Positions 1 through 64,000 of a stretch of DNA of 64,000 nucleotides are shown here, piece after piece. The notes below the pieces were generated by a model that did not search any database, was not told the DNA's origin, and worked only from the letters and a program-made list of their open reading frames with translations. The stretch spans positions 41,726,001 to 41,790,000 of the forward strand of contig CM060733.1 in the NCBI GenBank assembly GCA_030704615.1, written 5' to 3'. The stretch's first letter is position 1. Each line of letters begins with the position of its first letter. The position numbers were made by a program, and so were the translations under genes. Source of the stretch: Takakia lepidozioides. Lineage: Eukaryota > Plantae > Bryophyta.

Positions 1-4
1 GGGG

Positions 5-34110: not shown

Positions 34111-35393
34111 AAACAAGGAAAAATGAAGAGCATTGGCGGGATTTAAATTAAAACAGCATGTCATGACCGTCCGATCTTACCCTAATCCGATCGAACGGCC
34201 ATAATTTTACATCGAAACTTCATCCAAATCTCATTCATCTGTTGACGTTTCCGTTCACGAGTTTCCGTCCAAAAGTTTCAGTCTATCCCTCGTTTTTTCG
34301 TTCAGTTTGACATTTGAGTATGTCATTCAACATTGTGCATGTATAAATTTGGTTTACACTAGACATGGAGTTGAATGCGCGTGCAAGACCGTGGGCCCTC
34401 CTTGCCTGAGCCATGCACCCGCGCGCTGCCGGAGCCCGCCTGTCAATCCCCCCCCGGCCCCGGCCTCCCCCCCCTCCGCTCCCCTGAGCCTCTGCTCCCA
34501 TGGCATGTTGGTGTGTTGCTGGAGCATAGCAACTTTGTCGAGATGATTGCCGTGTTGGAGCAACCAGAGGCACGATTTGTGAAGGCACAAACAAATGTTG
34601 AACCACCAAGTACTGTTGTGAAGGGCCGTCTTCCAAGGAGTACAAACCCCGCCGCCAGTGTTGTGCAGGTGTCTAGAGGGCCACCTGAGCTTACACTGTG
34701 CAATGTCAGTGGCCGAAAGAGGTCAAGAAGGTCGTTGCAGTGCAGATGTGTTTTGGTCAGTATAGTGCTTTCTCTGATGCAGGGAGGGTGGAGGAGCTAC
34801 CTCTTTCGCAGCGCGCCACAGTTGTTAAAAGAAATCCAAGGAAGCGAGTCATGACGACTGAGGTGAGAAATACTGGAGCAGTCGAGCGGCAACGCAACGG
34901 TGGTGTCTTCGGGTAGGCTTGACGCAGTTAGGGCAGTATGCTGAAGATGGTTTGTCTCCGTCATGTCATACTTCCAGAGCTGATAGAGAAGGCGGGTGGA
35001 GAACTCCCATCTCCAGACAACGAAACTTGAAGATATTGTGTTAAGAATCTGTCGTGCGCATACGTATCGCAACACAACTACATCGCTGTCCAAACCACAC
35101 CACTCATATATGCACAATAAAGTAGTCTACCACAATCGCCCCCCTAGCTGATGGATAGGTCCATCTACCTCCAGATAGCTACAAGATGTAATAGCCACAA
35201 CCGTACTAAGTCCTCTATCACTGTCCCTATTGTGCTCAAACTCTATCGACCAAGAGGCCGGGTACAAGTGTAGCCCCATCGTTAGTCGCCGTCTTGCAAT
35301 CTGTGAACTTAAACCAGGATCTCGTGTGTTCAAGGTCTCCTAGTAGCTGGGCCTTGCGTTTCTTGTTAGCCTTCTATGGTGTATCCACTTTCA

Positions 35394-38300
35394 CTATCCA
35401 ATGCAATGTGGACATAACCAATCCCCATCCGGAACCATCTCAAGAGGTGGTATCAAGCATCCCATATGCCAACCTCGAGAGCATTGATCACACACCAGCA
35501 TGGTGGCTGCCCCTCTAGCAGACCCACACAACATGCACCTCAAACCTGCAGATACCACTGCCAAGTTTGGGTCAATCCTGCCATCGTAGGAGGAAGGTGA
35601 CATGGCGCACAATTACGCACATGGTCCTTCCAAGTTATGCCATCCCGACCCTCCAAGACCAAGACGCCTGAGGGCAAGACCTCTCGAACCCTCAAAATAA
35701 CACGTCATGCGGTCACATCCAAGGTCGTAGGAGCAGTCTGCTGCAGGTAAACATAGTCATCAGGGAATCTCTCCGAACCCCAGGACGATAGCCCCACCAC
35801 GTATGGTAGCATACCTCAACGTATCACGGTGTTGTGCAATGGCAAGGTTCTCGAAAGCCATGGGCATGACTTTCTTGAACAACTCTGCACGCTGCTCACA
35901 TGCACGTGCCCACACGTCCGGATCGTCAAGGTTAAGAACTGTAGCAGCTTCTCTGCGAATGGATGTAGGCAAATCCGCTCTCTCGGCCAAAGAGAAGAAA
36001 GTATGGTGAGAAGGAGGCAAGCGATGCTTGCTTGCTGAACCTGTAGCCCATGGCTAACCAGAGTAACTGAAGGTCCCAATCTCCCAGGTATCCCTTCTGC
36101 AAGCCATACTTGCGCAAACCCCTCTTTACTGTCTGAACAACTCTCTCTGCCAAGCCATCGGCCTCAGGATGATCCCGAGAAGTGGTGCGATGGTCTATCA
36201 AGGCCTTGACACACAAAGCCTGAAACTCCCCCAAGAACTCTCTCCCTTGGTCCGTGAGTACCTCAGCTGGAGCACCGAATCGGCTAAGCACACAATCCAA
36301 GAATGCATATGCAGCTCCCTCACTAGCCTTATCAGGCAATGGAACCAACTCAATCCACTTGGAGAAGTGCTCCACCATCACCAACACGTACTTGTTGTGG
36401 CGTATGGTCAATGGCAACGGCCCTGCAAAGTCAAGACTCCACCTGTAGCCCAATCCCATGATCAGAAGAGGGTGCAATTGTGGAGTAGGGGCGTTGAATG
36501 AAGCACGCACCCTGTCACACACGATGCACCTAGCCACAAATTGTTGCACCTCTGTGTGCATACCACGCCACCAATACTGCCCCTGCAGTAGGCTATAAGT
36601 GTGTCGCACTCCAAAATGCCCCAACTCCTCGTGGGCATGCCGCACTAACCGTGCCCGCTGTGTTGGGTGAGGCACAATCCTCACTTGACCATCCTCCCAC
36701 ACTCGGAGCAGATGTGTCCCCTCCCACTTGAACCTCTTGGCTCGTTGTAGGATCCGATCCCTCTCCTTGGCAGTCATAGTGGCTGCCGTGTCCCCAATGC
36801 GGAGGTAGTCCAACACAACTGAATCCTCATGTATACCTTTGGCGCCACCTTGCTCATTGCTGGCCTCAGGGTCCTCAGACACTTGATCTACAGTCATCCC
36901 TGTTGCAGGTCCAACCTGGCCATCCGCTGCCAAGATACACAGAAATGCAGATGCATGCCATCCCGGCACGTCTCTCACCGTGCCACCGAGCTCCAGTGTC
37001 ATCTTGCTGGCTCGTGCATGGATTGCGACTCAACCCATCTGCATTGCGATTGACCAAAACCCGGTCGATGCACCACCTGAAAGTCATACTCTTGAAGGAT
37101 GAGTGCCCCACCGTGCAAGCTTCCCCGTAAGCTTGTCTGACTCCATCAACCACTTGAGTGGTTGGTGATCCGTGACAAGGGTGAAGAGATTACTGTATAA
37201 ATAGCACCTGGAGTGTGCCACGGCCCACACTGCAGCTAAGCATTCTCCCTCATATGAGCTATACTTAGACTCGGCAGCATTGTTCGAGCGGCTAGCATAA
37301 GCCACTACGAACTCTCTTCCCTCATCATCCACCTGTGTGAGCACCGCTCCAAGCCCCAACATGCTCCAATCTGTGTGCAACTGAAAAGGACGCCCCCTGA
37401 TAGGTCGTCTCAAGATGGGCGCCGAGGTCAACCTCGCCTTGAGCTCTTGGAAAGTTCTTGCTTCTTGCTCATCTTCCCACTGCCACTCCTGGTCCACCTT
37501 GGTCAGCTTGGTTAGAGCCTTTGCAATGGCACTAAATCCTTAACAAACCGTCTATAATAGTTTGCTAACCCCATGAAAGCTCAAACTCGGCTCACATCCG
37601 TGGGGCATGGAACCTGTGCAATGGACTCTACCTTAGTCTGATGTACCCCCAATCCTCTAGGATATATCATGTGACCCAGATACTCAATCTGGTTGTGGAA
37701 AAACTTGCACTTTCCCGGATGTAACTTCAATCCGTGGCGCCTCAAGTGCTCAAATACCCCCTGAAGGTGTCTCTCATGCTCCTCCTAGTAGCACTAAAGA
37801 CGATGATGTCATCTATGTAGCACCGAGCAAACTCCACCCCTGCTAGAATCCTGTCCATGACTCTTTGAAACTCAGCAGGAGCGTTTTTAAGCCCAAATGG
37901 TAAGAACCGCCACTGGTATAGGCAATCCTTCCCGTGCTCATTGATCCCCTAGAATGTCGTCTTTTGCTTATCCGCCTCCTTGATCGGCAACTGGTGATAT
38001 CCGGATCGTAAATCCAATGTGCTAAAGACCTTGGCATGCCCAATGGCATCAAAGATCTCCTCTGATGTCGGCACGGCATACCTATCAGACTTGGTCTGAC
38101 GATTTACAGGCCGGTAATCACCGCACATACGTCTCTCCGTCCAATTGCCATAGACATCCTTCTTGGCTGGCATCACTGTGGCTGAAGCATACTCCCACCA
38201 GAGAGCTCCACCAAACCTGCCTCCCAGAGATCTTGAGTCCTCATCTGAATCAAAGACCTCTCCATGTCACTATATCCATAGGGTCTCCGAAAGATTGACG

Positions 38301-38679
38301 TGTCAGTGGCCAACTCAATACGGATCTCTTGACCCTTCAGTGCTCCCAAGTCCTTCAAACTGAAGGCAAAGCAATTTCTGTAAGCGCTCAGGAACCGCCG
38401 TATATGTCGTCTCTCTCCTCCGGTAACAATGGGTCCAATGGCAGGCTCCCAATTGTCCTCCGTAACTGCAACCTTAAGTCCAATGGGCTTAGAGGTAGAA
38501 GACGCGTCTCGTGGTTGCTATGCTGCAACCTCTTGAGCAGTACTCCCTTCTTGCTCAGTCAATGACAAGGCCTCATCCTGCCCCATCATCTCATCATTGA
38601 GAACCTCCTCAACCCAAGAAGAGTCCCCAATCTCATCCATCACAGCTGCCTTGGCTGCCAACTCCCTCTGAACCTCAGC
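35394..38679 (-). pseudogene. pol: RT, RNase H, integrase, C-terminal PHD finger (frameshifts and stops)
   Basis: RMCGDYRPVN, LDLRSGYHQ, CYIDDII, LHTDWS, SYEGECLA, H-x4-H...C-x2-C, WSLDFAGP, TDQGREF, GLAER; PHD CMLC...CDQCSRGWHMGC...WLCPHC. Confidence 0.95.
38512..38520 (-). promoter_or_regulatory. Putative stop-codon readthrough signal TAG CAA CCA (copy A)
   Basis: In-frame stop between the DNMT linker and RT; fits UAG-CAR-YYA; identical in copy B. Confidence 0.65.
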
Positions 38680-38695
38680 TGCCCAGTGGGGCAAG

Positions 38696-40123
38696 ATGCC
38701 AACACTAGCCGCCTTCACATCTGCAGTTAGTTGGCCTGGAGAGTTGCTGGAGGGCAATGCACATGCAGAGGATGTGCCACCTCCAGCAGAGCAGGATGAC
38801 ATGCATGGTATGGCGGAGTTGCCTGCCATGGTTGCTCACACTCCATTGTGGGGTACGAGCAAGGATTTGCAGCAGGCTGCTGATGAACGGGTGCAACAAG
38901 CTTGGGTAGAAGCTTTCGTACCGTCAGGGGAGGAGGAGAGTGTGGTGATTGCACCAGGACCACCTCAGTTGTCACCATTGGATACCACACCTATTGTGTG
39001 GCAGTATCCGGATGAAGGCATTTGCCTTCTGGACTTGTTTGGCGGGATCAGCACCGGATTGGCTGTTGTGCTACAGGCAGATATACGAGTTCGACATTAC
39101 CTGTATGTAGAGAGGGATGAGACTGCACGACGCGTCTCACTGCGCCATGTTGCTCAGATGGTGCAGCAGTACCCTGAGTTGTTGCCGGTGTCTGCAGTTC
39201 GTGGATATCAGCAGGCCTTGCCAGCAGACATTGCGTTGCTGGGGGCGCATGATTTGGAGCGGGTTGGCTCCATTGATCTGGTAGTGGCAGGTTGGCCCTG
39301 CCAAGGGCATTCATCAGCCGGGCATGGCAATGGATTGCGGGACTTGAGGACGGGTCTGTTTTGGGAGATGGTGCGGATTTTGCGCCACTTGCAACTTCAT
39401 CAAGCTGTATCTCCCGCATACATCTTGGAGAATGTGCCACTGATGGGTGATTCTCGGGCTAGGCTGATGGCCAGTGTGCATCAAGTCCGGTCATGGCTTG
39501 GGTTAGCAGTGTTGCTGGATGCAGCTGCAGTGGGGTCACGGGCTCATCGTCCACGGCTATGGTGGACTAACTTGATGCCACCCGCACTGCTCAAGCGTGC
39601 ATTTGATGGGGTGGAGCGGCTAGCACACCTCACAGTGGATAGCATTTTGGACACAGGGAGGCAGTCTCAACGTGTGAGAAACCACGACCGTTCGCCTTTG
39701 GCAGTGATCAATAGGGTGGGTCAACCACGAGCAGCATTACCTACACTGCTCAGCTTCCCAGGATCCCATGCTTTTTGGGATGGTGGACCTGGCCTCATGT
39801 GGGATGCTCAGTTGCAAAAGTTAGTGGAGCCTAATGCCGACGAGCGAGAGCGGGCTATGGGGTTTTCCACTAGGACCACGGCGGTGCCTTCTTTTTTTGA
39901 GGCATCACGTCGTCAGGTGTTGGGGCAAGCAATGGATCTCAATTGCTTGACCTGGATTATCAGCTTGGCTATGGCTGAGCAACGTAGAGTGCGGAGTGCA
40001 CTTCCCTTGACGGTCTCTCTGCCTACCGAGACGGTACAGGCAGCGAGTGGGGGCGAGCCGGTGAGGACCACGGGGTGTAGACATCCATGGCACACGTGGG
40101 AGGTGAAGAGCTTGTACTGGTAA
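38696..40123 (+). CDS. C5-cytosine DNA methyltransferase domain, uninterrupted (element homology ends near 40104)
   Basis: Canonical motif order: I LDLFGGIS, II YVERD, IV AGWPCQG, VI ILENV, VIII AHRPRLWWTN, IX ERERAMGF, X LGQAMD. Confidence 0.95.
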   Translation: MPTLAAFTSAVSWPGELLEGNAHAEDVPPPAEQDDMHGMAELPAMVAHTPLWGTSKDLQQAADERVQQAWVEAFVPSGEEESVVIAPGPPQLSPLDTTPIVWQYPDEGICLLDLFGGISTGLAVVLQADIRVRHYLYVERDETARRVSLRHVAQMVQQYPELLPVSAVRGYQQALPADIALLGAHDLERVGSIDLVVAGWPCQGHSSAGHGNGLRDLRTGLFWEMVRILRHLQLHQAVSPAYILENVPLMGDSRARLMASVHQVRSWLGLAVLLDAAAVGSRAHRPRLWWTNLMPPALLKRAFDGVERLAHLTVDSILDTGRQSQRVRNHDRSPLAVINRVGQPRAALPTLLSFPGSHAFWDGGPGLMWDAQLQKLVEPNADERERAMGFSTRTTAVPSFFEASRRQVLGQAMDLNCLTWIISLAMAEQRRVRSALPLTVSLPTETVQAASGGEPVRTTGCRHPWHTWEVKSLYW

Positions 40124-40331
40124 AGAATTGGATTCCAAAGGATATTCTGTGGATCAAACTCACACCAAGAACAACTTTCCAGACTTGTTTGCCATATGGT
40201 TATATGGTAACAGAGACTTCTAGTATAGCCAAAGGTGCATTGAAGCTTGAAAGAAACCCAGGCATATACGAGAGATACTACAGAAGCGAGTTTTGGTTAC
40301 TGCCACATTAAGGAAATGAAAGACATGGGAC

Positions 40332-40950: not shown

Positions 40951-41139
40951 AGGCTTCGTCGCTTGGACAAATCGGCACCGCATTCCTTCCCATCGCTGCA
41001 TCCCCCTTCTACCAGGGAGCTTCCCCGCACGCCATCCTGGCAGTCTTGTGTGCACATCTCCCATGGCGGAGAACCCGAGCGCTACAGTGTACTGCCCTCC
41101 TCACGAGCATAGAGCTTCATTTCGGAGAGGTGTCGGCCT

Positions 41140-41760
41140 CTCCGCCGCTCTGTGGGATATTCGGTGCCGAATTTCCGTCCGGCGGTTGAAATATGTTGGC
41201 CAGGTGTCGACCTCTCCCCCCTCCCCGACTGCAGGTAATTCGAACCCGGATTGAAATTCGGCGCCGTTTTCCCATCTGGGAAGGTTTTTATGTCGGCCAG
41301 TTTTCGGTCTGACCCCCCGACACGACTTCATTTGGGAGGGCCCGGATGGAAATTTGGCGCCGAATCTCCATCCAGGGGATGCTCTCTGTCGAACACGTGC
41401 CGACCTCTACGCCCGAGGCGACTTCATCCGGGCGTCCCCTGTTCGATATTCGGTGCCGAATTTCCGTCCGGGGGTTGAAATGTGACGGCCAAGTGCCGGC
41501 CTCTCCCCCCTCCCCGAGTGCATCCGAACCGCCCCGGATGGAAATTCGGCGCCGTTTTTCCATCTGGGGATGTTTTATGCCGGCCAGTTTTCGGCCTGAC
41601 CCCCCGACACGACTTCCTTTGGGGGGGCCCGGATGGAAATTCGGCGCCGAATCTCCATCCAGGGGATGTTCTCTGTCGCACACACGCCGGCCTCTGCGCC
41701 CGAGGCAACTTCATCCGGGCTTCCCCTGTTGGATATTGGGTGCCGAATTTCCATTCGGGG
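41140..41760. repeat. ~96-bp tandem repeat (7 units, ~290-bp higher order) with palindromic core ATTCGGYGCCGAAT
   Basis: Cores near 41157, 41253, 41351, 41447, 41541, 41637 and 41733; each unit best matches the one three units along. Confidence 0.85.
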
Positions 41761-41933
41761 GTAGTAATGTGACGGCACGGTGCCGGCTTCTCCCCTTCAG
41801 CCGTCATCATCCGGACGGCCCCCCACTTTCTGACTGCATACCGTTGGCAGTTATTGCGCAAAGACCAGGGGCCGCATTCCGGTGACAAGGTTCATTAACA
41901 CTCTGACTCTGGATTTTTGAGATAGTTGGCTCC

Positions 41934-43110
41934 ATGGAGAACGACCACGGAGCTTCTCGTGCCCACACTTCCGATGAGGTGGATAAATGGGATCCCCATT
42001 GGCAAAGGCGAAATGAGGAGTTCGAGAGATTGATTGCTACTGATCCTCTTTTCCAGCACTTGTCCGGAAAGATGTTTTACATGTGGGACGGCAATCATCG
42101 CCTTCTGGCATGGATGGAATACATAGCCCAAGCCCACCCCAACGACCTGGATTGGCATTTCGCCGTGGAGTGTGTTGTGCTCAAGGTTGCAGGGCCCAAA
42201 GATCGCAGTCTTCTCAAAGCGGCAATGGCAGACATCAACTCGTAAGTTACAATGCTTCTTGCTTTGGAACTTTGAATTTGAAACAGTCATTTCATTGCCA
42301 ATCGTCATATTTGTTGCAAATTCTCATTTCTGTATTGTTTAATGGAAATGTGGCATTGCAGGGTGACTGAGAATGTCTTCATTGCCACCAACTTGTCCCA
42401 TATGCTCTTCCGAGTGAAGGCTGTCAGGAAGCAAGGGGTGCAAAAGTTTGCCAATTCGCTCAGTGCCGACCTCCTGCGCAAGTCGGAGGCAAAGGCAGAC
42501 AGACCTGAATAGGCTGAGCATGGACGCCATGGTGGACTACATATTTCGGGTAAAGCTCCTCACTGTTTTGTTGAGCTAATCTGTCTCTCCTCCCCCAATA
42601 GAAGAAAAAGTGTTGAGCAGGATCTCTAATCTTATGTGCGCATTCTGACAGACGACGAAAATTCAACAGGATTTGGCACATGCGCGGAGGTTCTACGTGG
42701 AGTCAGAGAAAGAAACTAAAACCGACACTAGAATCATATCTCAAAGCTGCGGAGGCGAAGGCCCGCATCAAGTATAAGTCGCGGATGGTAAAGTACGTGG
42801 CCATAGCTGATCCCGCCCTTGGTGCCGATTTTCTGGTGGAGGTGGGGAAGCACTACTCCCGCGCTCTGAAGCCCACGATGACATTGGAGAAGCTGCATCG
42901 TCTAGGCACATCATATGTGGATGCAACAGAAAAGGTTATACATTCTTAACCGAATTGTCGTGGCAGCAATTCGTTTTTGTGGTGTTTGACACTTACTAAT
43001 ATGCTGGGTGGTTGGACAGACCCGGTGGCTCCAAATCTGGAACGGTTCCCAAAGTACAAGGACATGTGGAGCTTCCCCAAACCCGACAAACTGTCCGACC
43101 CCAAAAATAA
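41934..43110 (+). pseudogene. Spliced gene fragment with a ParB/sulfiredoxin-like DGNHR motif
   Basis: MFYMWDGNHRLLAW; GT-AG intron 42242-42361 gives DINSVTENVFIATNLSHMLFR; further exons near 42669-42934; lesions in exon 2. Confidence 0.55.
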
Positions 43111-43389
43111 ATAGGTTCATTTATTTGGATGAGGTCCATCAGCAGAGCTTTGAGAGTTTTTTACGTCAGTGGGGACCCCAACTAGGAATAAATATTGTTT
43201 TGGTAGATATATGGACGTATCATCATCTTCAGAGTCGCAACTATGACGTTGATTTGAATGTTGATGCAACCATAGCTAGAGCTTGTGTTTACGAGGATTC
43301 TTGCTTAGAGTTAGATGTGAAAAACAAGTTTTAGGCGAATAAGCTCTAGTTTTGAGAGTTGGAAGGTAGAGCCCCTGCTTTTGCAAAAG

Positions 43390-43800
43390 TACTTGGCTTG
43401 GATATGGTGTGCCCTCTTTTGACCAAGTCTAAGGGATATCGTTACCTATGTGTGGTGACAAATTACTTGACCAAGTGGATTGATGGAGACAACATTTGTT
43501 CTCCTAGGATATTGATTATGTAGTTCAGTTCTTTTTCAATGCAGAGATTATCTTACGCCATGGTTGTCCGCATGAAATCCTAACACATCAAAGAAAAGAG
43601 TTCTTGTAACCAATTGCTCTCGGTGGCCGTGTGCTTCAGCCTTGATGTGAAACAATATTCTACCGTTACGCCCTATCATCCTCAAACTAATGGACTCTTG
43701 AGATGCTTCAATCAAACTCTATGTCAGATGCTAAAACGTAGTGGTGTTTTAACTCATGATTGTAATACTTTCTTGTCCTCTTACATTTGCCTATAGGACT
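43390..43800 (+). mobile_element. Degraded Ty3/gypsy integrase core fragment
   Basis: NYLTKW, IILRHGCPHEILT, TPYHPQTNGL...FNQTLCQML in shifting frames. Confidence 0.8.
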
Positions 43801-44785
43801 GCCGTGCCTAATACTAGACAGATGTATTTTTAGATGGTTTATGTGAGAACTTGGGTTTCTTCTATATCCATGCTACACCATTGGTGTCTACCATGGCTAA
43901 CCCACGTGACCTTGATACTTTTCTTGAGGACTTATAGGCTTACAGTGAAGTGGTGCTTTTTACAGGCCAAGGCTAAGATCATGGTGCCACAAGCTCATAA
44001 TTACAACAAATGGGTTAAGTATGATGCTCAGTTTTAGATGGAATTCAATATTTGCATACTAGAGGTACGACACATTTCTTTCGGAGAGAAGCCCCCGAAC
44101 CCCAAGAACCAACTACTTATACAAGTTAGGGTTCAATCCTGCTTGGGTTTGGAACATCATGGCCAAGGCCACCTTGTTGGTAATATACCCTACAAACCTT
44201 CTTCACCTTTCTCCCAAGAGCTTGGGCAATGGAGGCTCAACTACAAGGAGAGGACTCAGCCCCCTCCACCCACCACATGAGATTTTATAAGGATCCAAAT
44301 GAGACATATGCCAAATGAGGTCCCAACACCAAAAATACAAAGAGCTTGACTAGAACAGGAAACCCAAAATAAACAAAGCCTCAAACAGCATTGAGCTCTC
44401 TTCTTTTGGCAAAACATAGAGGGGAGGTGAGAGTAAGGGGCATGACTCAGCACAACACACAAATCGGAGCCTTTGACACGGTGTAAGGTCCTTTGACCAC
44501 ATTTTCTCCATTGACTTCAACGAGCCAATAAAAAACAATCTAATAAGTAAAATTAACTGTTAAATAAGAAGACAATCATACATTCTCTAATACTGAAAAG
44601 TGTAAGTGTAATCGATGGTGTGATTAGACAGTGCTGCCATGGCCGGCTCTTGGGAGAGGGGGAGGGTGAGGGAAACGATGAAGAGGGGTAGAGATGGGCA
44701 CGAGGTTGGGGAGGAATGCGAGTGGATAAGTCTGGGAAATGCTACTGCACAATGTTTTTCGTGAGGGTCAGATCGCACAGGGGGG

Positions 44786-47700
44786 TTGACTTCGGCCTGG
44801 AGGGGTAATTTGCATCCCTGTACTGGATTCCAACTCACCCTGTTGGGCCTTTTGTTAGTGTCCCTCCCTCTAGTATCTGCGGCCCGGAACTTCGTGATTG
44901 TTTGGGAGGACGATGATACTAAAGATGGCGGAGAGGCGGGTGCCAACGGTGAAGAATTTAGCATGTCAGATGCCGCAGAGGACAGAGGGGGCCGGATCGG
45001 ATGGACAGATGGGCCGGATTCTGCCATTGAGTGGGATGAGTTTGGGGATACTGAAGAAAAAGGGGACGAGGATTTGATCCGGGTTCATGGAACCATGTTC
45101 TGGAGCAGTCCCATGCGCGGAAGAAAACGGAGGCAATGAGGTATGTAGCATATCTATACACACCTATTGATCTTATTCTGTGTTACTTCCTTTTCTCAAT
45201 GGCAATCCCCGAGCTTCTTCACCGGAAAATTGCACCTTCTTACATTGACTGTAGTGTGCAGAAAGCAAGAATGTACCAATACTGTGGAAGAGTTTATGGT
45301 TTTAGGGTTTCCTTACGTTGTCCGTATTGCAAGGAGTGAGTACGTGTAAACCCTAGCCCTAAGCTTAGAATCGATGGCGAATTTCAAGAAAATTGCAGGC
45401 CTTTATACTGAGATAAATTTGGAATTCAAATTTCTCTGGAAAGATCACTGACTGGGGTAGGTTTTGATTTTGTAGTAATGCATTTTGATGGCTTACCTGC
45501 ACCCAAACATCTACAATAGAGGTTCCCAGGAAATTCAAGAATCTGCCAACAGATATGAGCGGTCTGAAATTTTTCCTTCGTGTTGAGTGGGTGTATCACC
45601 GACACGCCACAATAATTACTGTTTGTCTGATGTTATGGACTGGTAGCAGGTCTGGTTGTGCCTGGAGTCTTAGGGTTAAGCCATAATGGAATTGTAGTGC
45701 AACAACCTTTACAGCTTATGTTAATGGTTACCCATGGTCCATCATCAACCCTTGGAACTTCCACCTCACCATCTTTGGAGTTATGCTTAAACTGTTTTTG
45801 AGTGCAACATGCGTGCAGTATGCCATCGGAGTAAGAAAACTGATCGAGGGTGTAAGCGAGGGGGAGTCAGATGTTCTGAAGGAAGCCATTAAGCATCTGA
45901 AGTCAGAGGCAGATAATGGGAATGCACATGCACAATCGACCTTTGCATTTTTGCACGGTGCTGGTTATGGTGTGGAGCAGAGCGATGCAAAAGCATTTTT
46001 GTTGCACCATTTTGCAGCAGAAGGTGGGAACTTTCAATCAAAGATGGCCCTGGCCTACAGCTACTCCCGGCAGCAGGTGTGGGTTTAGTCCATATTGCAC
46101 TGATATGGGTACATCGCGAAGTTTTAAGATGCCTCATAGTGTTCAATAGATTCTCATATGCCGAACTACCTGTGACATGTTTCCATTAGTCACATCTAAT
46201 TTTATCTGTCATTGTCTTTCTTGATTTCCCCATTTCTCCTAGAACTATGAGGCAGCAAGAAGGCTTCCCTTATGCCCTTTCTTTCCTTTGCACAATCCAA
46301 GCATGTCTACCCTCTAAAGCAATTGAAGCTGCCTCACTTGGCCCCATTATGCACACCCACCAACCAATAGATTAGCGACATGCAGAGAATGCAAGGCTTA
46401 ACGGCTTCACAGTTGTTACCCATGTCCACTTTAGCTAGGAGACATTCTTGGATTGCAAGATAGAAAGAAATGACTGCATACCAGTGGGTGGGAGGGTGGT
46501 AGTATTTCTTGCAACAGTACATCAGCAAAGCAAGGCATTGCTTAGGCTGTTACAGCAGCACTCAGCCCTGTGTTGTGATACTGAGCAACACTTGAAAGTA
46601 AAGAGCCTAAGTTAGTACCTTGAAGCCACAGTTCCTGGCACTGAGGTCACTGCTCCTTCAGCTCCTGCCTGCTCTTCCAAATGAGAAGAGCAGCCAGGGC
46701 TTCTAACATTATGGGGCAGCCTCTTTCTGACCATGTAGGACAGCTGCTTTAGGTTAGGACCTAGGGAGAACCCCCGTTATCCCTTCCATTCTAGGCAAAA
46801 AAAGCCAAACAGAATTAGGGAATTAGGCAATTCTTTGAGTGGTGCTACCAAAAACTTAGCCACCATCAAGATACAAGCAGGAAAGAGAGGCAGAGAGGCA
46901 AAAGTCCTCAAGCCTCTCATTTTCAGGTTTCCTAATTCTGACACAAGGCATGGGCTCAGCTGCAGGTATAAACTTATTTTCCCACAACTGCCATCAAGTG
47001 ACTCACAGAAGCACTTGTCTGCATGCAAACTCAACAGCTTGGTTGCAGGGTTATGGACTTTATTTTATAGCCCTGCGTTTACCACAGAAATGAGATGCCC
47101 TTCACTCTGGATTGTGTGCAGGGTTGGAGAGAGAATGGTTCAGTCATGTCAAGAATTGTCCAGTCCTAGATGATTTGGATCTAGTTGTGTTTTAGCTTAA
47201 CGACACCACACATCTGGACATGATCCATCTCCTTCAATATAACCACTAGCAATTACATGTAAATCAAACAATTTCTGCAAAGCTTGGATTTGTGAGTATA
47301 CAGGCTTTGACGTAAGGTCCCTCCTAGTTTCCATAGGTAGAATAGAAGCCTCAAAAGGTTCATACTAGAATACTTATTGTAGAATCTATACAAAAGTTAA
47401 AATTGCAGCCCTGAAGTCATAGCTCAGCAATCAGGGGATTGGTTCTCTAAAGCAGTTCTGCAAACTGAGAAGTCTCCATGTGGGCATACTTGAGCCCCGA
47501 GGAGGTCATAGTGTCAAAATGCAGCCATCTACCTATTTCAATGTTGGTATGAAGAGTTACAGTAGGTGGATTCTTGTAAAACGGATCAGGAAATGGCAAG
47601 GCTGCCACTGGTGATCAGATCCTAATGTCTTCCTACAGTCCAACAAACATTTGAATAGCACAAACAAATGTTTACTCTCAACATTCCACACCAAGCATGA

Positions 47701-50700
47701 GGCAGCATGAAAGCTTTCTTATGCCTTTTATTTCGCTTTTCACAATCTGAGTATGTCTACCCTCTAAAGCAAGTGAAGCCGCCTCAACTGGATCCATCAC
47801 AACCAACCAACAGGTTTGTGATCCCTGTTGGACCCCAGGCTTAAATGGCTTAAATGGCTATCCATGTCCACTTTCGCTATGAGACATTCGTTGTTTGTAT
47901 TACAGAAGGAAAAGACAGCACATTTGTGGGTGGGAGGGTGGTACTTATCTCTAGCAACAGTACATCAGCAAAAGCACAGCATTGCTTATGCTGTTACAGC
48001 AGCATTCAGCCCTGTGTTGCCATACTGAGCAGCACTTCGGTGTGTTTAAAGGGTACCTTGCTTGCAGTCATGGTTCAGCAGTGAGGTGACTGCTCCTTCA
48101 GCTCCTGCCTGCTCGTCTTCCAAATGAGAAGCGCAGCCAGGGCTTCTAAGGGAAGCCTCTCTTCTGACCATGTAGGACAGTTAGGACCTAGGGAGAAAAT
48201 GTTCAAGAGAAAGCAAGAGAGAAAATGTTCATACTGTTCCCTGCGAATGCTGCTTGCCATAGCCTTCCGGCCATTGACCCGCAAGAGAATGTACTCACAA
48301 GACTTCGTTTGCCGTAGCCTTGTGGCCATTGACCTAGCTCCCAGTTTGAGCGGAACACAAAGGGACTGAAACTATCTTTGTCAGGGGCTGACGTCGGTAG
48401 TATGACTTACCTTGGAACAGACAGTTGATCCGAGTTTTCCAGATATCCTCTAGAAATCCCTTTACGCAAGCATCAAATCTGCTGTGTGTGATTTGCCCAA
48501 TAACTAGGCCCCAAAAGGGCTTTTGGCCCAGCCTCAAGATTTTCAAAGTTGGCAAACAGAGGTATAGGCACAAATCCCTTAATGGATTTGATAGGACAGA
48601 GAGAGAGAGAGAGAGAGAGAAATGGCAGTCAAGTGTGATTGACCAATTTTTTTCCATGCCCTGGAATTCAATTCGGTGTTTCCATTCTGAGGTTTACGGT
48701 GTCTGTGCTGTAGATGCACGAGGAGGCGGTCAAATTGTATGCAGAGCTGGTAGCTACTGCCATGGCCAGTTTCTTAAGCTCTAAAGATAATCCTCTCATG
48801 GAACCAGTGCGATTGAATGATGGATTTGAGGAAAGCAAGGAGGCCTTGAAAAAATTTCGTGGGGAAGATGATGACGATTTCCAGTTCCTAGAGTATCAGG
48901 TAGGTTCCCTCTTTTGCATCCAAATCATGTTCATGTTCAGAGAGTCATCTGTATATTTATAACCAGAAGAAAACAGGGAAGGCATTATTCTATTTTCTCA
49001 ACTTTTATATTGAACTTGAGGTAATGTATCTTACTCTATTTGAAGGAGTTGGTAATCATTTATGTTAGAGGGTGGTTTGTTAACATTGTCTAAGTTTGGC
49101 GAAAGTTTTTCTTACTACAGCTTTGTCATAAAGGCTTCCCCTCACATCTCCAACCAAAGGATCAGGCGTCAGACCAGCAGAAGTAGTAGAAAGTGGATCT
49201 GGCTGGCCCCTAGCACAGAGCATGCTTGATATGTCAGTGCACATGGACTACAGCTGGTCAGGGCTGTCAGGTTTTTGTTTACTGATTTCAGTAGTTCTCA
49301 CAGACTCTACTTGAGTCACTAACAATAAGCTGTAGTCCAGGCTCACAAGGGATATCCGGAGGCAATGTATCGACTGGGAGTATTTTATTACTTTGGGTTA
49401 CGTGGCGTGCGGCGTGTTCACACCAAGGCTCTCACATGGTTTTTGAAGGCAGTGGAGAAGTCGGATTCACAGTCAATGGAGCTGCTGGGAGAGATGCACG
49501 TGGCTATGGTGTTGAGCGGAACTACTCCCGAGCTTATGAGTGGTTCATGGCAGCTGCTCGCCAAAAGCATTTCTCGGCCCTTAACGGAATTGGGTATCTC
49601 TATGTCAAGGGACAAGGGGTGGTGGATGGCAAGAATCATACCAGGGTAATGAACATGTATCATATCCAGCTATGCTTGTAATTGGGTTTCAAAATGTTAT
49701 AACGATAATTAACTGGAAGACAGGCACAATCCCTAATCGTGTGCAGTAGTTAAGCATCCTTACATGCTGGAGCCTTGCAGGATGCTGGTTCCAAGTAATA
49801 TGGAAAACATGTGGTAGGTGAAGTCAGTGACATACATAGAGGTTAAAATGGGCATGGGAGAGATAGGGAGATAACCCAGAGGAATAAAGACACTCGTAAC
49901 CTTGTAAGTCGACCTTCGGTTACAGCTGTACAGGTTGGTAAGGACTCTTCAGTGAAGGAGGGCGCCGGTTCACCTCTTTGATTTGGGTAAGGAAGAGATA
50001 CATCCAGACTAATACATAACCCAAGGGTGAAGAAATGAGGGAGATGCTTCAGTAACAATTAAACTAGTGGAGATAAGTTTTTATAGGGCTCAACTCATGG
50101 ATTTATGACTGGATTTGTGGTGGTGGAGCAGGCAAAGGAGTTCTTCAAAAAAGCTGCAGATTCAGGCGATTCCCATGGGCATTACAACATGGGCGTTCTT
50201 TATCTGAAGGGAATGGGAGTTAAAAAAGATGTGAAGGAAGCATGTAAACACTTCTTGACGGCAGCTAATAAGGGGCATCCGAAAGCATTCTACCAGCTTG
50301 CCAAGATACAGCAGCGAGGGATTCCTGGCATGAAAAGGGATGTGGCAACAGTAAGTCTTTTGCTGAGTACACAAACAGATGCATTTTCTACTTCATCCAA
50401 AGACCTTCCATGTGCTTATGTTCCTCCAACCTTGAGGACTTGTATCGATACTGTTCATCCCAGGCTAAGTTAATGGAAATTTTGCTGTCAGCAGATGACC
50501 CTTGCAACAGTATGCTACTCCTAAAATTGCATGTGGAGATAGTAAATCATGTGAGAATTTTGGAGTTCTCCTGTATGCTTCAGGTGTCTTTGTGATCAAT
50601 AAGCCTCTGTTTGGTCAAGGTTGTTTGAGTGATTCTTGTTTCATGTCACCACTGTGTCACTGGCAGTTGCCTCTTCCACATGTCTTGTCGCTTTGCTATG

Positions 50701-51380
50701 TAGTGCATCTGTCTTCTGAAAGCGTCCAAAAGACAGTCTTTACTCTACTGAAAGTGCATCCAACAGATGGCCGGTGGCTAGGGCACAAGTCTGCCTTGCA
50801 AGTGGAAGGGGGTTTAAATCTGTCAGTTGGGTGCCAGCCATTAAAGCCCCTAGCCATAAAGAGGTGGTTACTAGGTAAATTGGTCACTTAATGTCGTAGG
50901 GCGTTTAGAGTTCTTGGGGAAGGGATTCAATAATGGGTTAGAGGGTGTCTGCCTACCAAATGGATGGCAGTAGTCCAAGGTGAAGAGACACCAGAGACAT
51001 GCTTGTTTCATGTCCGCCTCTTGTTTGTTTACTGAACTCAGCTCTGATGGAGCAGGCGGCTGCACTATACAAGATAGTGGCAGAAAGGGGTCCCTGGGGT
51101 TCAATCATGCGGTGGGCATTGGAGTGCTATGTGAAAGGCCAGGCAAGGCTCTTCTCTTCTCCTTTACTCTCGTGCAGCTGAGCTTGGCTACGAGGCTGCC
51201 CAGAGCAATGCGGCGTGGATTCTGGAGAAGTACCATAGTGAGGGGGTTTGCCTTGGGAAATCGGGAGTTTGCACAGATATGGAGCGACACCAACGGGCAC
51301 ATACCTTGTGGCGCTATGCTTCAGAGCAAGGCAATGAGCATGCAGCACTACTCATTGGAGATGCGTACTACTATGGCAGG
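44786..51380 (+). pseudogene. HRD3: HRD3/SEL1L ERAD component, 6 exons, frameshifted and 3'-truncated
   Basis: Exons ~44786-45140, ~45819-46076, 48714-48899, 49341-49645, 50132-50350, 51056-51380; signal peptide, EWDEFGD, DPGSW, Sel1 repeats, [11 protein letters not shown]; frameshifts near 45075, 49497 and 51142. Confidence 0.92.
46248..48195. repeat. Two diverged ~500-bp direct repeats (46248-46769, 47698-48195) in HRD3 intron 2, possibly LINE 3' remnants
   Basis: Shared blocks such as ATGTCTACCCTCTAAAGCAA, CTGCTCCTTCAGCTCCTGCCTGCTC and TTAGGACCTAGGGAGAA. Confidence 0.7.
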
Positions 51381-51499
51381 GTGAGTTCTTGCTCCTACAG
51401 GGCAACATCAGTGATGGCCTCTGGAAAATAAATAAATAAAAGTTTTGTTAAGGTCACTTACCAGATGAGACTCCAATATTACCCGTTTTCTCAATTGGG

Positions 51500-54134
51500 C
51501 CTGACTGCCATCCAGGCCTGTAGGATGCTGACTCTTCCCAGAAGTCCAGGGTGAAGCCCATGGGGTATAACAATGCCCCACCAACGAGGACATCGTAAGA
51601 GACCGCGTCTGTCACAATGGCCTTGGCTCGCATCACTGAGCTATTTACAGGATGATCCGGCTGTAGTCTAATGGCCAACTGATGCCGTGTCATGCCTCGA
51701 GCCTGCTCTGATCCTCCCAGAGATATCTGTATCTGGAAAGGACAAGGCTCCATATCCGCCTCCATGAGGCCCAAACCTGCAATAGCGACTCTGCCCAACA
51801 TCAGTGGCTGAGCTCCCGAGTCCAACAAGACCCGAAGTGGCCGGTATTTCTTGCCTGCCAGTCCACTCAATGAGAAAATGCCTCCCTGGTTGTCTAACAA
51901 GACAATTCCAGGTGTCACCGTGGCGCGCTCAAAGGCTGGTCTAGCTGGCAGCTCCGTCAACCTGGCAGCTGCAGCTTGCCATGGCGCAGCCGTGGCAGTC
52001 TTGACCCTCAAATCCGAGGATCCCTCTGCCACTACACCTTCCACTAACTCCGCAAAAGATGAAGTGACCTCCCCACTCTCACAGAGTGTTGCTGCTAGTC
52101 TGAACACTACAGCTGGTCTCACCCCCGGCGTCGCAATCATGGTTGCCGAGAACAGTGAGGCTTGGTAACTAAAAAGAGGAATGAAGGACAAGCAGCACGA
52201 CTGCTCTGAGTGGGCAGCCATCCCGGGTTTCACCCTCGCACTGGGCACCAGAACACCCAACAACATCACCAGCCGCACTAGCCTGGCAGCAGATGTCAGT
52301 GCTGCACGTGTAGCTCTCCCAATGGCATAGTAACCTTTGCCTCGGTGACAGTTCGGGCGAGAACTAGGTGCCATGGATGGCGTCGACACAGTCTCCGCCA
52401 ATGTGAATGACTGAGGAAGCCTCGCCTGACGGCTTGCCTCTCTACGTTGTGAGATCCAATTCCACCTCTGCACCTCGTGGCTCAGGAACTCGTGATGCCT
52501 CCTTGAGTCACGGCTGCAGCAGACTCCACCTGCTCTAGTTGGTTAGCCGCTGCTCCGCCCATAAATCCCATGCCTCCCCATCTCCTCCCTCGGAGCAGGA
52601 GGTGGACCATCCCGCTATAGGAGCGGGCGGTACCGCCCTGAGCCATAGCCATGGCAGCAAGCTCTGCTCTAGCTGCTGAAGCCGCCCGTTGGCCATGCCT
52701 TGGTCAACACCCTGACCTCCGCGTCCTTGGCCATGTGGAGCTTGCCCCTTGACCTGCACCTCGTGCCCGACCACCTCGTCCTCTTGGGCTGGTCCACCTC
52801 GCCCCCGGCCACCATTGTTCCCTTGGAACTGGCTTGGGCGCAACTCAGGATGCAAGTCATAACACTGGGCATCTCCATGCCCATACTTGCCATAATTCCC
52901 ACACTGCAGCTGTGCAGGCTGTGCTTTGTGTCGGCCTTTCTGCCACTCTCTGGGCAATAATCTCTTTTACATGGGGTCCTCCACATGTCCAACATACCAC
53001 CCCTGGTTGCTGTTGGCCTGCAAAAGATGCCACGCGGCCTCTGCATCTGAGGTCCCCTGTAAGCTCCATGGAACTTGGGTTGGGCAACCTTGCCCCCCTG
53101 ACCACGTTGTTGGGGCAGTTCCTTGTGCCTGTGGGCTGGCAGCTGCGCCTTGTGCAGGCATGTCCTTGCCAAATCCAATGGTAACAACTCGCTCCTCCAC
53201 CATGTTGAGCTCAATCCGCTCAGCCAGCAGAAACACATCTGCTAATGTGGGTTGGGCTGCTTATAACAAGGTTGCATCTCGCACCCTTCTCTTGAGCTCC
53301 TTGTCCAGAATTCCATACCAAAACTGGATTTCCTGAGCTTCAGTAAACCCTTGGGTCACACTTATCAAGCGCCTCATACGAGTGTACACCTCTCGCAGGC
53401 TCTCACTGGGTTTGCGCTGGAAGTCTTGCAAGCTTCGCAGCTTCTCAGTCCGTACACTTTGGTAGTTCATCCGCAACTCCTGGAAGAACTCCACCACCGG
53501 GTTGAATCTAGGACACATGTGTTGTAGTCGTGGGAGGAGAAAGTAGTAGCACCCTCTCCAGAAGTACTACGGCACTACTAGTGCTAGCCGTGGGAGGTAT
53601 TGGGACTAATGCAGCTACTGGTCGTGTTGTTCCCCGAGTAATGGAGACGTAGTCAGGTGACCAATACATCCTCCACTCTTCAATTTCTGCTTCATAGTCC
53701 TCGCTCGCCTGAACTCGTGGTAATCGTCACGTAGGCGGGCCTTCCAAACGCTGGAACAATCCCTTCACGCCATAATGGGGTGAACAGCTGTGGATTGCGC
53801 ATCTGCTGCAAATCACACCAACTGTCGAACTCCTGGATAAAGTCATCCAGCTCGATTGTGCCCACAGCTCCAGAGTACCTACGAGGCCCCTTGGGACTCC
53901 ATACATCTCCTCCATGTCGTCCCACAACAATGGCGAAGAAAACTGCACACTTGTTGATGAAACCTCCGGGTCTGTGTCAGACTCTACAGTAGTTGAGGGT
54001 AGAGGTGAAGGTGGTCTGAACCGAATACCTCGTCTTGTGAACCCACTCTCACTCCACGCTACTGCCTGAGCCGTACTCCCCTCAAAACCCTGGGGTAACT
54101 CCGTGATGACACTCACAATGTGCACCTCCTCCAC
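51500..54134 (-). mobile_element. gag-protease part of the DNMT-carrying element family (copy C), frameshifted and truncated just before the DNMT
   Basis: Homologous to 60026-61773; CWTCGGPH and CGNYGKYGHGDAQC knuckles, VLLDSGAQP; ends at YRPGWQSG. Confidence 0.92.
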
Positions 54135-58690: not shown

Positions 58691-58766
58691 CTTCACAAAA
58701 CAAGTGTTATTCGGAAACCCTAAACCCTAAACCCTAGTGTTTCCGAATAACACTTGTTTTGTGAAG
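58691..58766. repeat. 28-bp perfect inverted repeat enclosing ~3 plant telomere repeats
   Basis: Arms 58691-58718 and 58739-58766; centre AAACCCTAAACCCTAAACCCTAG. Confidence 0.93.
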
Positions 58767-59960: not shown

Positions 59961-60025
59961 TTAGCAAGACGATGGTTGCACGATGGTCTGCGTGTGCAAA
60001 GTTCTTACGAGTTTTGTGTTCCTTT

Positions 60026-63000
60026 CCGAAGCTCAGGCAGTCCAATTCTGGTATGGGATATTGGACAAGGAGCTGAGGAGAAGGGTGCGGGATGCAACTC
60101 TCCTACAAGCGGCACAACCCACCTTAGCAAATGTGTTTTTGCTGGCAGAGCGGATAGAGCTCAACATGGTGGAGGAATGAGTGGTCATGGTGGGATTTGC
60201 TAAGGAGACCCCACGGGGTAGTGGTGCTCCTAGCCAACCACTACCTCCACGTGCTCAAGGCAACAAGGGGGCTCAAGTGAAGCTCAGGGAAGGGCAGAGA
60301 GGACCTCAAATGCAGGGGTCTCTCCCTTCATTTGCAGGCCAACACCGGGCGGATGTGGTATGTTGGACATGTGGAGGACCCCATGTCAAGAAGGATTGCC
60401 CAGAGGGAGGCAAAGGGCTAGCATATGCACAGCCTGCACAGTTGCAGTGTGGGCATTGTGGCAAGCACGGGCATGGAGAGGCCCAGTGTTATGACTTGCA
60501 TCCTGAGTTGCGCCCAGGCCAATTCCAAGGGAACAATGGTGGCCGGGGGCGGGGTGGAGCAGCCCAGAGAGGACAAGGTGGCCAGGCACGAGGTGCAGGC
60601 CAAGGACCAGCTCAACATGGCCAAGGACGCGGAGGTCAGGGTGGTGACCAAGGCATGGCCAACCGGCTTCAGCAGCTAGAGCAGAGGCTCGCTGCCATGG
60701 CTACAGCTCAGGTGGTACCGGCTCCAAGGCCGGATGGTCCACCTCTTGCTCCTGAGGGAGGAGATATAGGAAGCATGGGATTCACGTGCGGAGCAGCACT
60801 ACCACTAGTGTAGGTGGAGTCTGCTGCAGCCGTGACTCGAGGAGCAGCATGAGTTCCTGAGCCGCGAGGTGCAAAGGTGGAATCGGATCCACAACGTGGG
60901 GAGGCAAGCCGTCAGGCGAGGCTTCCTCAGTCATTCACATTGGCGGAGACAGTGTCGACGCCATCCATGGCACCTAGTTCTCGCCCGACTGTTACCGAGG
61001 CGGAGGTTACTATGCCATTGGGGAGAGCTACATGGGTAGCACCACTACCTAGTGTTGCAAAGGTTGCGGCAGCTAGTGTGCTGTTGGGAGCGGCCACATC
61101 TGTGTGTCAGGCTCCATTGTTCTCAACTACCATGATTGCGACGCCGGGGGTAAGACCAGCTGAGGTGTTCAGACTGGCAGCTACACTCTGTGAGAGTGGG
61201 GAGGTTACTTCATCTTCTGCGGAGATAGTGGGAGGTGTAGTGCCGGAGGGATCCTTAGATTTGAGGGTCAAGACTGCCACGGCGGCGCCATGGCAAGCTG
61301 CAGTTGCCAGGTTGATGGAGCTGCCAGCTAGGCCAGCCATTGAGCGCGCCATGGTGACACCTGGAGTTGTCTTGTTAGACAACCAGGATGGCATTTTCTG
61401 TTTGAGTGGACCGGTATGCAAGAGGTACTGGCCACTGCGGGTCTTGTTGGACTCGGGAGCTCAGCCATTGATGTTGGGCAAAGCTGCTATTGCAGGCTTG
61501 GGCCTCACGGAGGCGGATATGGATCCTTGTCCTTTCCAGATACATACGTCCCTGGGAGGATTGGAGCAGGCTCGGGGCATGACACGGCATGAGTTGGCTA
61601 TCAGATTACGGCCGGGTCACCCTACAGATGGCTCAGTGATGCGGGCCAAGGCCATTGTGACAGACGCGGTCTTGTATGATGTCCTGGTTGGTGGGGCAGT
61701 GTTGTACCCCATGGGCTTCACCCTGGATTTTTGGGAGGAGTCATCTTCCTATAGGCCTGGATGGCAGTCAGGGTAGGGCCGACGTGTGCAGCTCCCTGTG
61801 ACGTTCATAGGAGGAGTTGCGGTTGCCCAACGAGGCAAGATGCCGACACTGGCAGCATTCACAGCTGCAGTGACTTGGCCTGAAGAGTTGATGGAGGGCA
61901 ATGCCCATGCAGAGGATGTGCCACCTCCAACAGAGCAGGATGACATACATGGTACAACGGAGTTGCCTGCCATGGTTGCTCACACTCCATTGTGGGGTAC
62001 GAGCAAAGATTTGCAGCAGGTTGTTGATTGTCGTGTGCAACAAGCCTGGGTAGAGGCTTTTGTACCGTCAGGAGAGGAGGAGAGTGCGGATATTGCACCA
62101 GGACCACCTCAGTTGTCACCATTGGATACCACACCTATTGTGTGGCAGTATCCGGATGAAGGCATTTGCCTTCTGGACTTGTTTGGCAGGATCAGCACCG
62201 GATTGGCTGCTGTGCTACAGGCAGGTATGCGGGTAAGGCGTTACCTGTATGTGGAGAGAGATGAGACTGCACGATGTGTCTCACTCCGTCATGTTGCTCA
62301 GATGGTGCACTAGTACCCTGAGTTGTTGTCGGTGTCTGCAGTTCGTGGATACCAGCAAGTCTTGCTAGCAGACATTTCGTTGCTGGGGGCGCAGGATTTG
62401 GAGCAGGTTGGCTCCATGAATTTGGTAGTGGCAGGTTGGCCCTGCCAAGGGCATTCATCAGCCGGACATGGCAATGGATTGCGAGACTCGAGGTCGGGTC
62501 TGTTTTGGGAGATGGTGCGGGTTTTGCGTCACTTGCAGCTTCATCAAGCTGTATCTCCAGCATACATCTTGGAGAATGTGCCACTGATGGGCGATTTTCA
62601 GGCCAGGGTGATGGCCAGTGTGCATCAAGTCCGGTCGTGGCTTGGGTCAGCAGTGTTGCTGGATGCAGTTGCAGTGGGATCACGGGCTCATCGTCCACGG
62701 CTATGGTGGACTAACTTGATGCCACCCGCACTGCTCAAGCGTGCATTTGATGGGGTGCAGCGGCCAACACACCTCACAGTGGATAGCATTTTGGACATAG
62801 GGAGGCAGTCGCAACGTGTGAGACACGATGACCATTCGCCTTTGACAGTGGTCAAAAGGGTGGGTAAACCACGAGCAGCATTACCTACACTGCTCAGCTT
62901 CCCCGGATCCCATGCTTTTCGGGATGGTGGTCCTGGCCTCCTGTGGGATGCTCAATTGCAACAGTTAGTGGAGCCTAATGCCAACGAGCGAGAGCGGGCT

Positions 63001-64000
63001 ATGGGGTTTTCCACCGGGACCACGGCGGTGCCTTTTCTTTCTGAGGCATCACGTCGTCAGGTGTTGGGGCAAGCGATGGATCTCAATTGCTTGACCTGGA
63101 TTATCAGCTTGGCTATGGCTAAGCAACATAGAGTGCGGAATGCACTTCCCTTGACGGTCTCTCTGCCTATCGAGACGGTACAGGCAGCGAGTGGGGACGA
63201 GCCGGTGAGGACCACGGGGTGTAGACATCCATGACATATGTGGGAGGTGCTCGAGGTTCAGAGGGAGTTGGCAGCCAAGGCGGCTTTGATAGATGAGGTT
63301 GGGGATTCTTCTCGGGTTGAGGAGATCCTCAATGATGAGATGATAGGGCATGATGAGGCCTTGTCATTGATTGAGCAGGCAGGGAGTACTCCTCAAGAGG
63401 TTGCGGCATAGCAACCACCAGACGCGTCTTCTACCTCTAAGCCCACTGGACTTAAGGTTGTAGTTACGGAGGATAATTAGGAGCCTGACATTGGATCCAT
63501 TGTCACCGGAGGAGAGAGACGACGTATACGACGGTTCCTGAGGGCTCACAGGAATTGCTTTGCCTTCAATTTGAAGGACTTGGGAGCACTGAAGGGTCAA
63601 GAGATCCGTATTGAGTTGGCCACTGACACGCCAATCTTTCGGAGACCCTATAGATACAGTGACATGGAGAGGTCTTTGATTCAGATGAGGACTCAAGATC
63701 TCTGGGAGGCAGGTTTGGTGGAGCTCTTTGGTGGAGAGTATGCTTCAGCCACAGTGATGCCAGCCAAGAAGGATGTCTATGGCAATTGGACGGAGAGACG
63801 TATGTGCGGTGATTACCGGCCTGTAAATCGTCAGACCAAGTCCGATAGGTATGCCATGCCGACACCAGAGGAGATCTTTGATGCCATTGGGCATGCCAAA
63901 GTCTTTAGCACTTTGGATTTACGATCCGGATATCACCAGTTGCCGATCAAGGAGGCGGATAAGCAAAAGACGGCATTTTGGGGGATCAATGAGCACGGGA
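60026..64000 (+). mobile_element. DNMT-carrying Ty3/gypsy element, copy B: gag-PR-DNMT-linker-RT in one frame; 5'-truncated and runs off the window
   Basis: ORFs at 59983, 60181, 60877, 61786 and 62323 and the RT start share a single frame, separated only by point stop codons; two Zn knuckles, DSGA protease, PCQ/ENV methyltransferase, RMCGDYRPVN. Confidence 0.96.
63409..63417 (+). promoter_or_regulatory. Putative stop-codon readthrough signal TAG CAA CCA (copy B)
   Basis: In-frame GCA-TAG-CAA-CCA, same position and context as in copy A. Confidence 0.65.

Follow-up and report, generated by a model that had tools for sequence, protein, structure and literature searches.

A conserved and probably leaky in-frame stop codon follows the DNMT3-like domain of a plant Ty3/gypsy retrotransposon family

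Retrotransposon copies at the locus

The window, a 64,000-nucleotide stretch of Takakia lepidozioides contig CM060733.1, contains the retrotransposon pieces listed in Table 1. Elsewhere in it lie a DYW deaminase with an E+ motif, of the land-plant PPR editing factor type (26098–27222), a Ulp1 protease fragment (12275–12766), tandem arrays at 1–1573 and 41150–41822 with periods of ~116 and ~96 bases, and a short inverted repeat at 58691–58766 with CCCTAAA telomere-like units at its center.

Table 1. Retrotransposon features in the window
Feature	Position	Strand	Basis
ORF1 remnant, copy B: Gag C-terminal part, protease, DNMT3-like domain, linker	60022..63408	+	translation
Two zinc-knuckle-like motifs, Gag nucleocapsid region	60361..60489	+	read from translation
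Aspartic protease, LLDSGA motif	61432..61710	+	motif; Pfam Asp_protease_2 in relatives and L081
DNMT3-like C5 cytosine methyltransferase	62160..63130	+	Pfam DNA_methylase, E 1.7e-11
In-frame TAG ending ORF1, conserved	63409..63411	+	copies compared
CAA CCA, CAR-YYA readthrough hexanucleotide	63412..63417	+	sequence
ORF2 start (reverse transcriptase), in ORF1's frame	63412..64000	+	Pfam RVT_1
5' arm of predicted long-range RNA stem	63422..63438	+	folding
3' arm of predicted stem, codons G-G-E-R-R-R	63508..63525	+	folding
Copy A junction (TAG 38520-38518), RT, RNase H, integrase, PHD; frameshifted, broken	35391..38676	-	
Copy A DNMT segment, inverted relative to copy A pol part	38680..40105	+	Pfam / copy comparison
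Copy C: Gag N-terminus to protease	51499..53915	-	motif / comparison

Copy B is 5'-truncated at ~60022 and carries six private stops in its ORF1 remnant. Residues 188–1243 of a Marchantia ORF1 match it at 51% by tblastn, and the ~187 N-terminal residues of Gag are absent. The assignment of the N-terminal region to Gag is suggested by the zinc knuckles and by Pfam matches in relatives, in which zf-CCHC is found and Retrotrans_gag is matched weakly in two Marchantia proteins (E 0.011–0.023). No Pfam protease match is obtained in copy B itself. The methyltransferase domain contains motifs I, IV (PCQ), VI (ENV), VIII, and X in unrearranged order, and its best PDB matches are DNMT3A (E 4e-8) and then DNMT3B, with DRM2 far behind. 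On the basis of these motifs and matches it is a DNMT3-like enzyme of predicted activity.

Copies C and A (35391–53915) share the minus strand, follow each other in the expected order, and just fall short of overlapping, as would a single element interrupted by ~11.4 kb of other sequence and carrying its 1426-base DNMT segment inverted. They are probably pieces of one rearranged element, and the window therefore holds two elements rather than three. Since these two are 92–94% alike, the TAG that they have in common could, within the window alone, be a shared lesion. The window pieces, like the undecayed relative L081 described below, show the domain order of a Ty3/gypsy LTR retrotransposon (Gag-PR-RT-RH-INT), the full order being Gag-protease-DNMT3, stop, RT-RNase H-integrase-PHD. 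No LTR pair was found in 33000–64000, and the copies in the window are truncated.

The initial annotation had counted eight in-frame stops in copy B, and exactly eight are present between 60076 and the window end, at 60178, 60811, 60850, 61774, 62311, 63232, 63409, and 63478. At six of these, the other copies have a sense codon, just as it had listed. The stop at 61774, said to have no comparator, indeed falls in a 51-base gap within the window, and it corresponds to a sense residue in two of five relative proteins, the two where the motif was found. Only the stop at 63409 is common to copy A, where GCA TAG CAA CCA is likewise read (38520, minus strand). The combination of TAG and CARYYA at 63409 is more than chance, because CARYYA follows a stop triplet in only 8 of 2344 cases on the plus strand of the window and because the stop is kept across species and distant relatives.

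Conservation of the stop and its context

Within the host species, the copies were assessed in the contigs of publicly available sequencing runs; those from four runs of a single sample mark a high-copy family. Sense codons account for 98% and >99% of the summed contig depth at 63232 and 63478, respectively (X1), and these two stops are private to copy B. No variant at 63409–63411 is present among the 40 of 110 rows listed. When a narrow stretch is considered with all rows, no variant of at least 1% is seen at 63407–63418 among 301 X1 contigs; variants are present at 63405, 63406, 63419, and 63420. The same twelve positions are invariant in two X6 contigs, one X7 contig, and one X11 contig, the last of which is from another organism. 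The CAA CCA hexanucleotide is thus invariant at the 1% level. In all four runs, the summed contig depth falls three- to tenfold over 63388–63411, and divergent subfamilies may therefore be under-counted.

The decisive case for the stop as a genuine feature of the element is L081. RT patterns retrieved this single locus from the genome collection, and its junction is fixed by its ORFs rather than chosen. ORF1 (Gag-PR-DNMT) has 1162 open codons, the junction is a single TAG followed by CAA TCA, and ORF2 (RT-RH-INT-PHD) continues in frame with ORF1 for 1047 open codons that include a YxDD-type RT, RNase H, integrase, and PHD. Identity to the window is 49% in the DNMT and 64% in the RT. The contig is circularly collapsed. 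The L081 sequence (1–9285) is placed in the record of a cyanobacterial metagenome-assembled genome, and its Pol carries the label of a cyanobacterial reverse transcriptase; this is most likely eukaryotic contamination. It also contains a 2-kb non-coding part (6635–8600) with a run of ~24 A and short tandem repeats.

Nucleotide copies from metagenomes were taken as the best 80 of 159 loci for the DNMT query. Among these 80, 54 cover the site in a first moss-type family (46 after merging near-identical copies), 7 end before the site, 2 enter unrelated DNA, and 17 belong to four other lineages, with 12 of the 17 read at the junction. The 46 merged copies have a mean identity of 88%, and the family groups with Sphagnum proteins in the DNMT tree (100/99). 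A stop occupies the site in 45 of the 46 copies (34 TAG and 11 TAA, with GAG in the remaining one). At 44 other stop-prone codons, the stop frequency reaches 32% at most, with a mean of 11%. The initial annotation had named CAG in young copies as the finding that would speak for a lesion. CAG occurs at the site in none of the 46 moss-type copies, and the undecayed L081 is interrupted only by the TAG with its CAR-YYA context. We conclude that the TAG at 63409 sits in a decayed Ty3/gypsy copy and is not itself a lesion.

Most copies of the first family read CAA CCC after the stop, one base off CAR-YYA. In the remaining moss-type and decayed lineages, the junctions were placed by eye. By this placement, L043 reads TAG CAA CCA behind two earlier stops, and the second moss-type family has a stop in six of the seven copies read (TAA in five of seven), followed by CAA TCA or CAA TTA in four of those six. 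One decayed lineage (L062/L066) reads TAA CAT GTA, and another (L060/L065) reads TAT CAA ATA, which is not a stop. Taken together, TAG with CAR-YYA and an in-frame downstream ORF is found in the window, L043, and L081, and TAA with the same two features in L059, L074, L076, and L078. The distance from the stop to a conserved Trp is 17, 23, 24, 28, or 29 codons among the lineages, and the frame is always kept. The triplet at +4 to +6 varies (CCA, TCA, TTA, or CCC); since it encodes Pro, Ser, or Leu, it is the nucleotide pattern that is kept, not the residue.

As a separate matter, G-to-A change in the moss-type copies (L001–L080) is high after A (CAG 0.30, GAG 0.16, TAG 0.15) and low in AGG, TGG, GGG, ATG, and GTG (0.01–0.03), which hints at a sequence preference in non-CG methylation decay. 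Against viral contigs, P0019 gave no match, and the Pol alignment gave one distant locus, L082.

The copies from Marchantia, Calypogeia, and Coleochaete were compared as proteins only. Full-length ORF1 proteins of 1228–1451 residues occur in Marchantia, in a Calypogeia cluster, and in metagenomes, and they end 93–163 residues past the last DNMT motif; the linker from the DNMT to the stop is 111 codons in the window family. Separate RT-RH-INT-PHD proteins have 1033–1043 residues, and one Pol cluster has 226 members, most of those listed being full length. ORF1 of this family is represented in Marchantia by the gene models Mp_4g09160, Mp_5g06330, Mp_Vg00370, and others. The Marchantia annotation presents ORF1 copies as host genes (the P0003 cluster), several of them on the V chromosome, such as Mp_Vg00370 and Mp_Vg00540. 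In the transcriptome of Coleochaete scutata, the open frame of a Pol of this family (P0134) extends 64 residues upstream of the conserved Trp, and its ORF boundary therefore lies elsewhere.

In a DNMT tree of 60 rows, the ORF1-type proteins form one clade of 40 (99/97). Outside this clade, the DNMT continues into the RT in one ORF, the Klebsormidium type included, and the stop was likely gained from a single-ORF ancestor if the midpoint, the only root used, is placed correctly. In a separate clade of 11 proteins (100/99; P0040–P0042, P0045–P0047, P0049, P0051, P0052, P0054, and P0055), a related DNMT mostly sits between the RNase H and the integrase, which is another position for it within gypsy elements.

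Predicted readthrough and competing explanations

Folding predicts a stem that begins 11–14 nt past the stop in four lineages (the window family, the first moss-type family, L076, and L081), with arms of differing sequence and with pair types changed at aligned positions. Nucleotides 14–33, counting the U of the stop as 1, are predicted to pair with codons 9–16 after the Trp. There are 13–19 predicted pairs in 7 of 12 rows, and the stem is absent in the other 5. The arms were delimited with the folds already in view; own-partner pairing then ranks 6 of 720, 17 of 720, and 2 of 24 pairings, and the own partner beats 96–100% of nearby windows in six of nine rows, failing in three decayed ones. 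Over 350 bases, the pair probability is 0.89 for copy B, 0.64 for L020, and 0.87 for L081, and 0.01–0.02 for copy A and L076. The L081 junction has a z of −4.4; of 51 windows, three rank above it, two of them overlapping the junction, and one other L081 window folds as strongly. Single-sequence folding of the window and moss-type junctions is no better than shuffles (z −0.2 to −1.2). The criteria of Firth et al. 2011, as far as the accessible text gives them, are at least 10 pairs, a 7–12 nt spacer, a long loop, and compensatory changes. The data give moderate support to a predicted long-range stem recurring behind the stop in four lineages, which is a new observation.

It is very probable that the TAG is the conserved end of an ORF1 encoding Gag, protease, and the DNMT3-like domain, and that it is read through rarely into the in-frame RT-RNase H-integrase-PHD region. 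The suggestion of a leaky stop in the initial annotation is thus supported by the maintenance of the stop across species and distant relatives and by its CAR-YYA context, from which we infer readthrough itself. In such a scheme, the hexanucleotide would drive insertion of a near-cognate tRNA, as in tobamoviruses, and the predicted stem 11–14 nt downstream would help. At a TMV-like rate near 10%, about ten molecules of Gag-PR-DNMT would be made for each Pol fusion. The element's protease would then release the DNMT, and the freed enzyme might be packaged at the level of Gag and methylate cDNA, or it might act in the nucleus. These last steps, from processing to packaging and the enzyme's target, are drawn here from general LTR-element biology.

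Among the other explanations, translation of Pol on its own, by an internal promoter or by reinitiation just past the stop, has a precedent in the proposal made for Tca2, whose junction is apparently of the readthrough type and for which readthrough was undetectable in yeast (available text of PMC2194720). The largest moss-type family has an ATG at codon +3, whose A is kept in 45 of 46 copies, and L076 has one at +5; gene callers begin ORF2 16–20 residues ahead of the Trp. Reinitiation nevertheless fails for the window family and L081, because the first in-frame ATG after the stop lies inside the RT, 85 codons downstream in both window copies (A and B) and 117 codons downstream in L081, and because the ORF2 starts called for the L081 group are GTG codons, given as V in one source. 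A separate start for Pol also leaves the kept frame and the CAR-YYA unexplained, and we regard it as very unlikely.

Splicing could also join the two ORFs if an intron holding or ending at the stop were removed from some transcripts, as in Ogre (PMC6317226, available text), in which case the TAG might double as a 3' splice site. The moss-type context, TTTTTGCATAG, is acceptor-like, and five eukaryotic gene models within the clade of 40 bridge the stop, fusing DNMT to pol. Their junctions are, however, five different ones, as expected if gene predictors avoid a stop. The linker has 41–55% GC in four lineages and is coding-like, the frame is kept on both sides of the stop, L081 has no pyrimidine tract and has an AG three bases earlier, and the TAA in five of the seven copies of the second family speaks against a splice acceptor. 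A lone contig of run X7, tentatively taken as RNA though possibly DNA, crosses the site unspliced, which is a weak point. An Ogre-type non-coding intron between the ORFs is thus not what is found here, where there is a single in-frame stop, a coding-like linker, and no consistent junction. TAA in the first family was also considered as a test against an acceptor, and its frequency (24%, 11 of 46) lies within decay when compared with the mean of 15% at other G positions in TAG context, making it non-discriminating. Splicing at this site appears very unlikely.

Yet more improbable is that the stop is a plain terminator, with ORF1 expressed, Pol supplied in trans, and the in-frame pol and its context left as relics. 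It would fit the annotation of Marchantia ORF1 copies as stand-alone genes and the broken state of every copy in the window. The fully open pol of L081 and the many full-length members of the Pol cluster argue against it, as does the fact that, single decayed ones excepted, no stop-free helpers were seen among the nucleotide-level copies of the clade. Finally, a CAG-to-TAG lesion in dead copies, shared or recurrent, has a negligible chance of being correct: although, of the stop-prone codons in the moss-type copies, CAG mutates most readily (up to 32%), the lesion is refuted by the invariance within the host species, the absence of CAG from the site, and the TAG as the sole interruption of L081.

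Relation to known elements and significance

The literature within our coverage, which did not extend to subscription papers, contained nothing on this junction or this family in bryophytes. SIRE1 is a copia element with its stop after pol, and that stop reportedly has a CAR-YYA context. Its likeness to the present case is that of a plant retroelement with a suppressed in-frame stop, there between pol and env (cited in PMC2194720, available text). Streptophyte elements are mentioned in 10.64898/2026.05.21.726589 and PMC12344493, with no stop in the text available; their supplements may list bryophyte copies.

The nearest relative is KnitGypsy-Dnmt3 of Klebsormidium nitens, in which, in the available text of de Mendoza et al. 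2018 (PMC5890265), the DNMT is described within the Pol ORF together with RT and RNase H. It too is a gypsy element with an unrearranged Dnmt3 domain and its catalytic motifs ahead of the RT. The K. nitens protein KFL_009030040 (P0202) is 43% identical in the DNMT and 42% in the RT, and six of seven Klebsormidium-type metagenome proteins inspected continue from DNMT to RT without a stop, with P0053 ending. Here, in contrast, a conserved stop parts the DNMT from the RT, and the DNMT belongs to another clade. Because the two domains do not share one ORF, the window family is a sister variant rather than KnitGypsy-Dnmt3 itself.

The context resembles the type I signal of tobamoviruses, benyviruses, and pomoviruses in the stop, the hexanucleotide, the A at −1, and the polymerase downstream. 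In TMV, UAG-CAR-YYA is sufficient for readthrough, at ~10% in vivo with Tyr inserted (PMC3159437 and PMC2754532, available text, for both statements). The short TMV product also contains a methyltransferase, for capping, which is a coincidence of layout. The present case differs from these viruses in its retrotransposon host and in the apparent combination with a long-range 3' stem; in the accessible part of Firth et al., no such stem is seen in tobamoviruses, and one is described for alphavirus-like type II sites.

Readthrough of an in-frame stop straight after Gag is already known (10.1101/2022.12.06.519325, PMC2194720, and PMC3441728, as far as available). In MuLV, Tj1/Tosmo/Tcry, and Tca2, one in-frame stop holds Pol below Gag, as it would here. 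Their stop lies directly after Gag, however, with the protease on the Pol side and, in the text available, no methyltransferase, and their contexts are TGA-CT or UAG plus a pseudoknot (10.1101/2022.12.06.519325 and PMC2194720). RIRE2 of rice is cited as a gypsy readthrough candidate (PMC2754532, available text); the accessible portions of PMC2844528 and PMC1142308 contain nothing on the position of its stop. Ogre, of the Tat lineage, has GAG-PROT followed by RT-RH-INT and so shares a first ORF that ends after the protease, but its ORFs are joined by splicing of a 274-bp region, and no DNMT is described (PMC6317226, available text). The initial annotation had called a boundary after the protease unusual. 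That part is overstated, as plant gypsy elements with such a boundary have been described (Ogre and others, in the same source); what is unusual here is that the DNMT lies ahead of the boundary and that the boundary is a CAR-YYA stop. Gypsy-DNMT3 elements, in-frame-stop readthrough, and a GAG-PROT first ORF are thus known, and the stop behind the DNMT and the predicted stem are new to the literature covered.

Why retrotransposons carry cytosine methyltransferases is an open question, and the standing idea of cDNA methylation has been argued from the place of the DNMT in Pol (PMC5890265, available text). An enzyme ahead of a leaky stop would say that dose matters, and the stop provides a small, testable cis-element. 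If it is read through rarely, the output of methyltransferase would be far above that of the copying enzymes. As a tentative proposal, somewhat less likely to be right than wrong as a whole, an old and widespread plant clade may have shifted its captured DNMT3 out of the scarce Pol product and into the abundant Gag one through the evolution of a tobamovirus-type leaky stop and a long-range stem behind it. Each particle would then hold the enzyme at capsid level and bring into bryophyte nuclei either cDNA that is already methylated or a pulse of de novo methyltransferase. For annotation, the stop makes intact elements seem dead and pushes gene predictors to invent introns. DNMT-gypsy elements are abundant in land plants that include a genetic model, Marchantia, and a de novo methyltransferase encoded by such elements could play a part in bryophyte methylomes.
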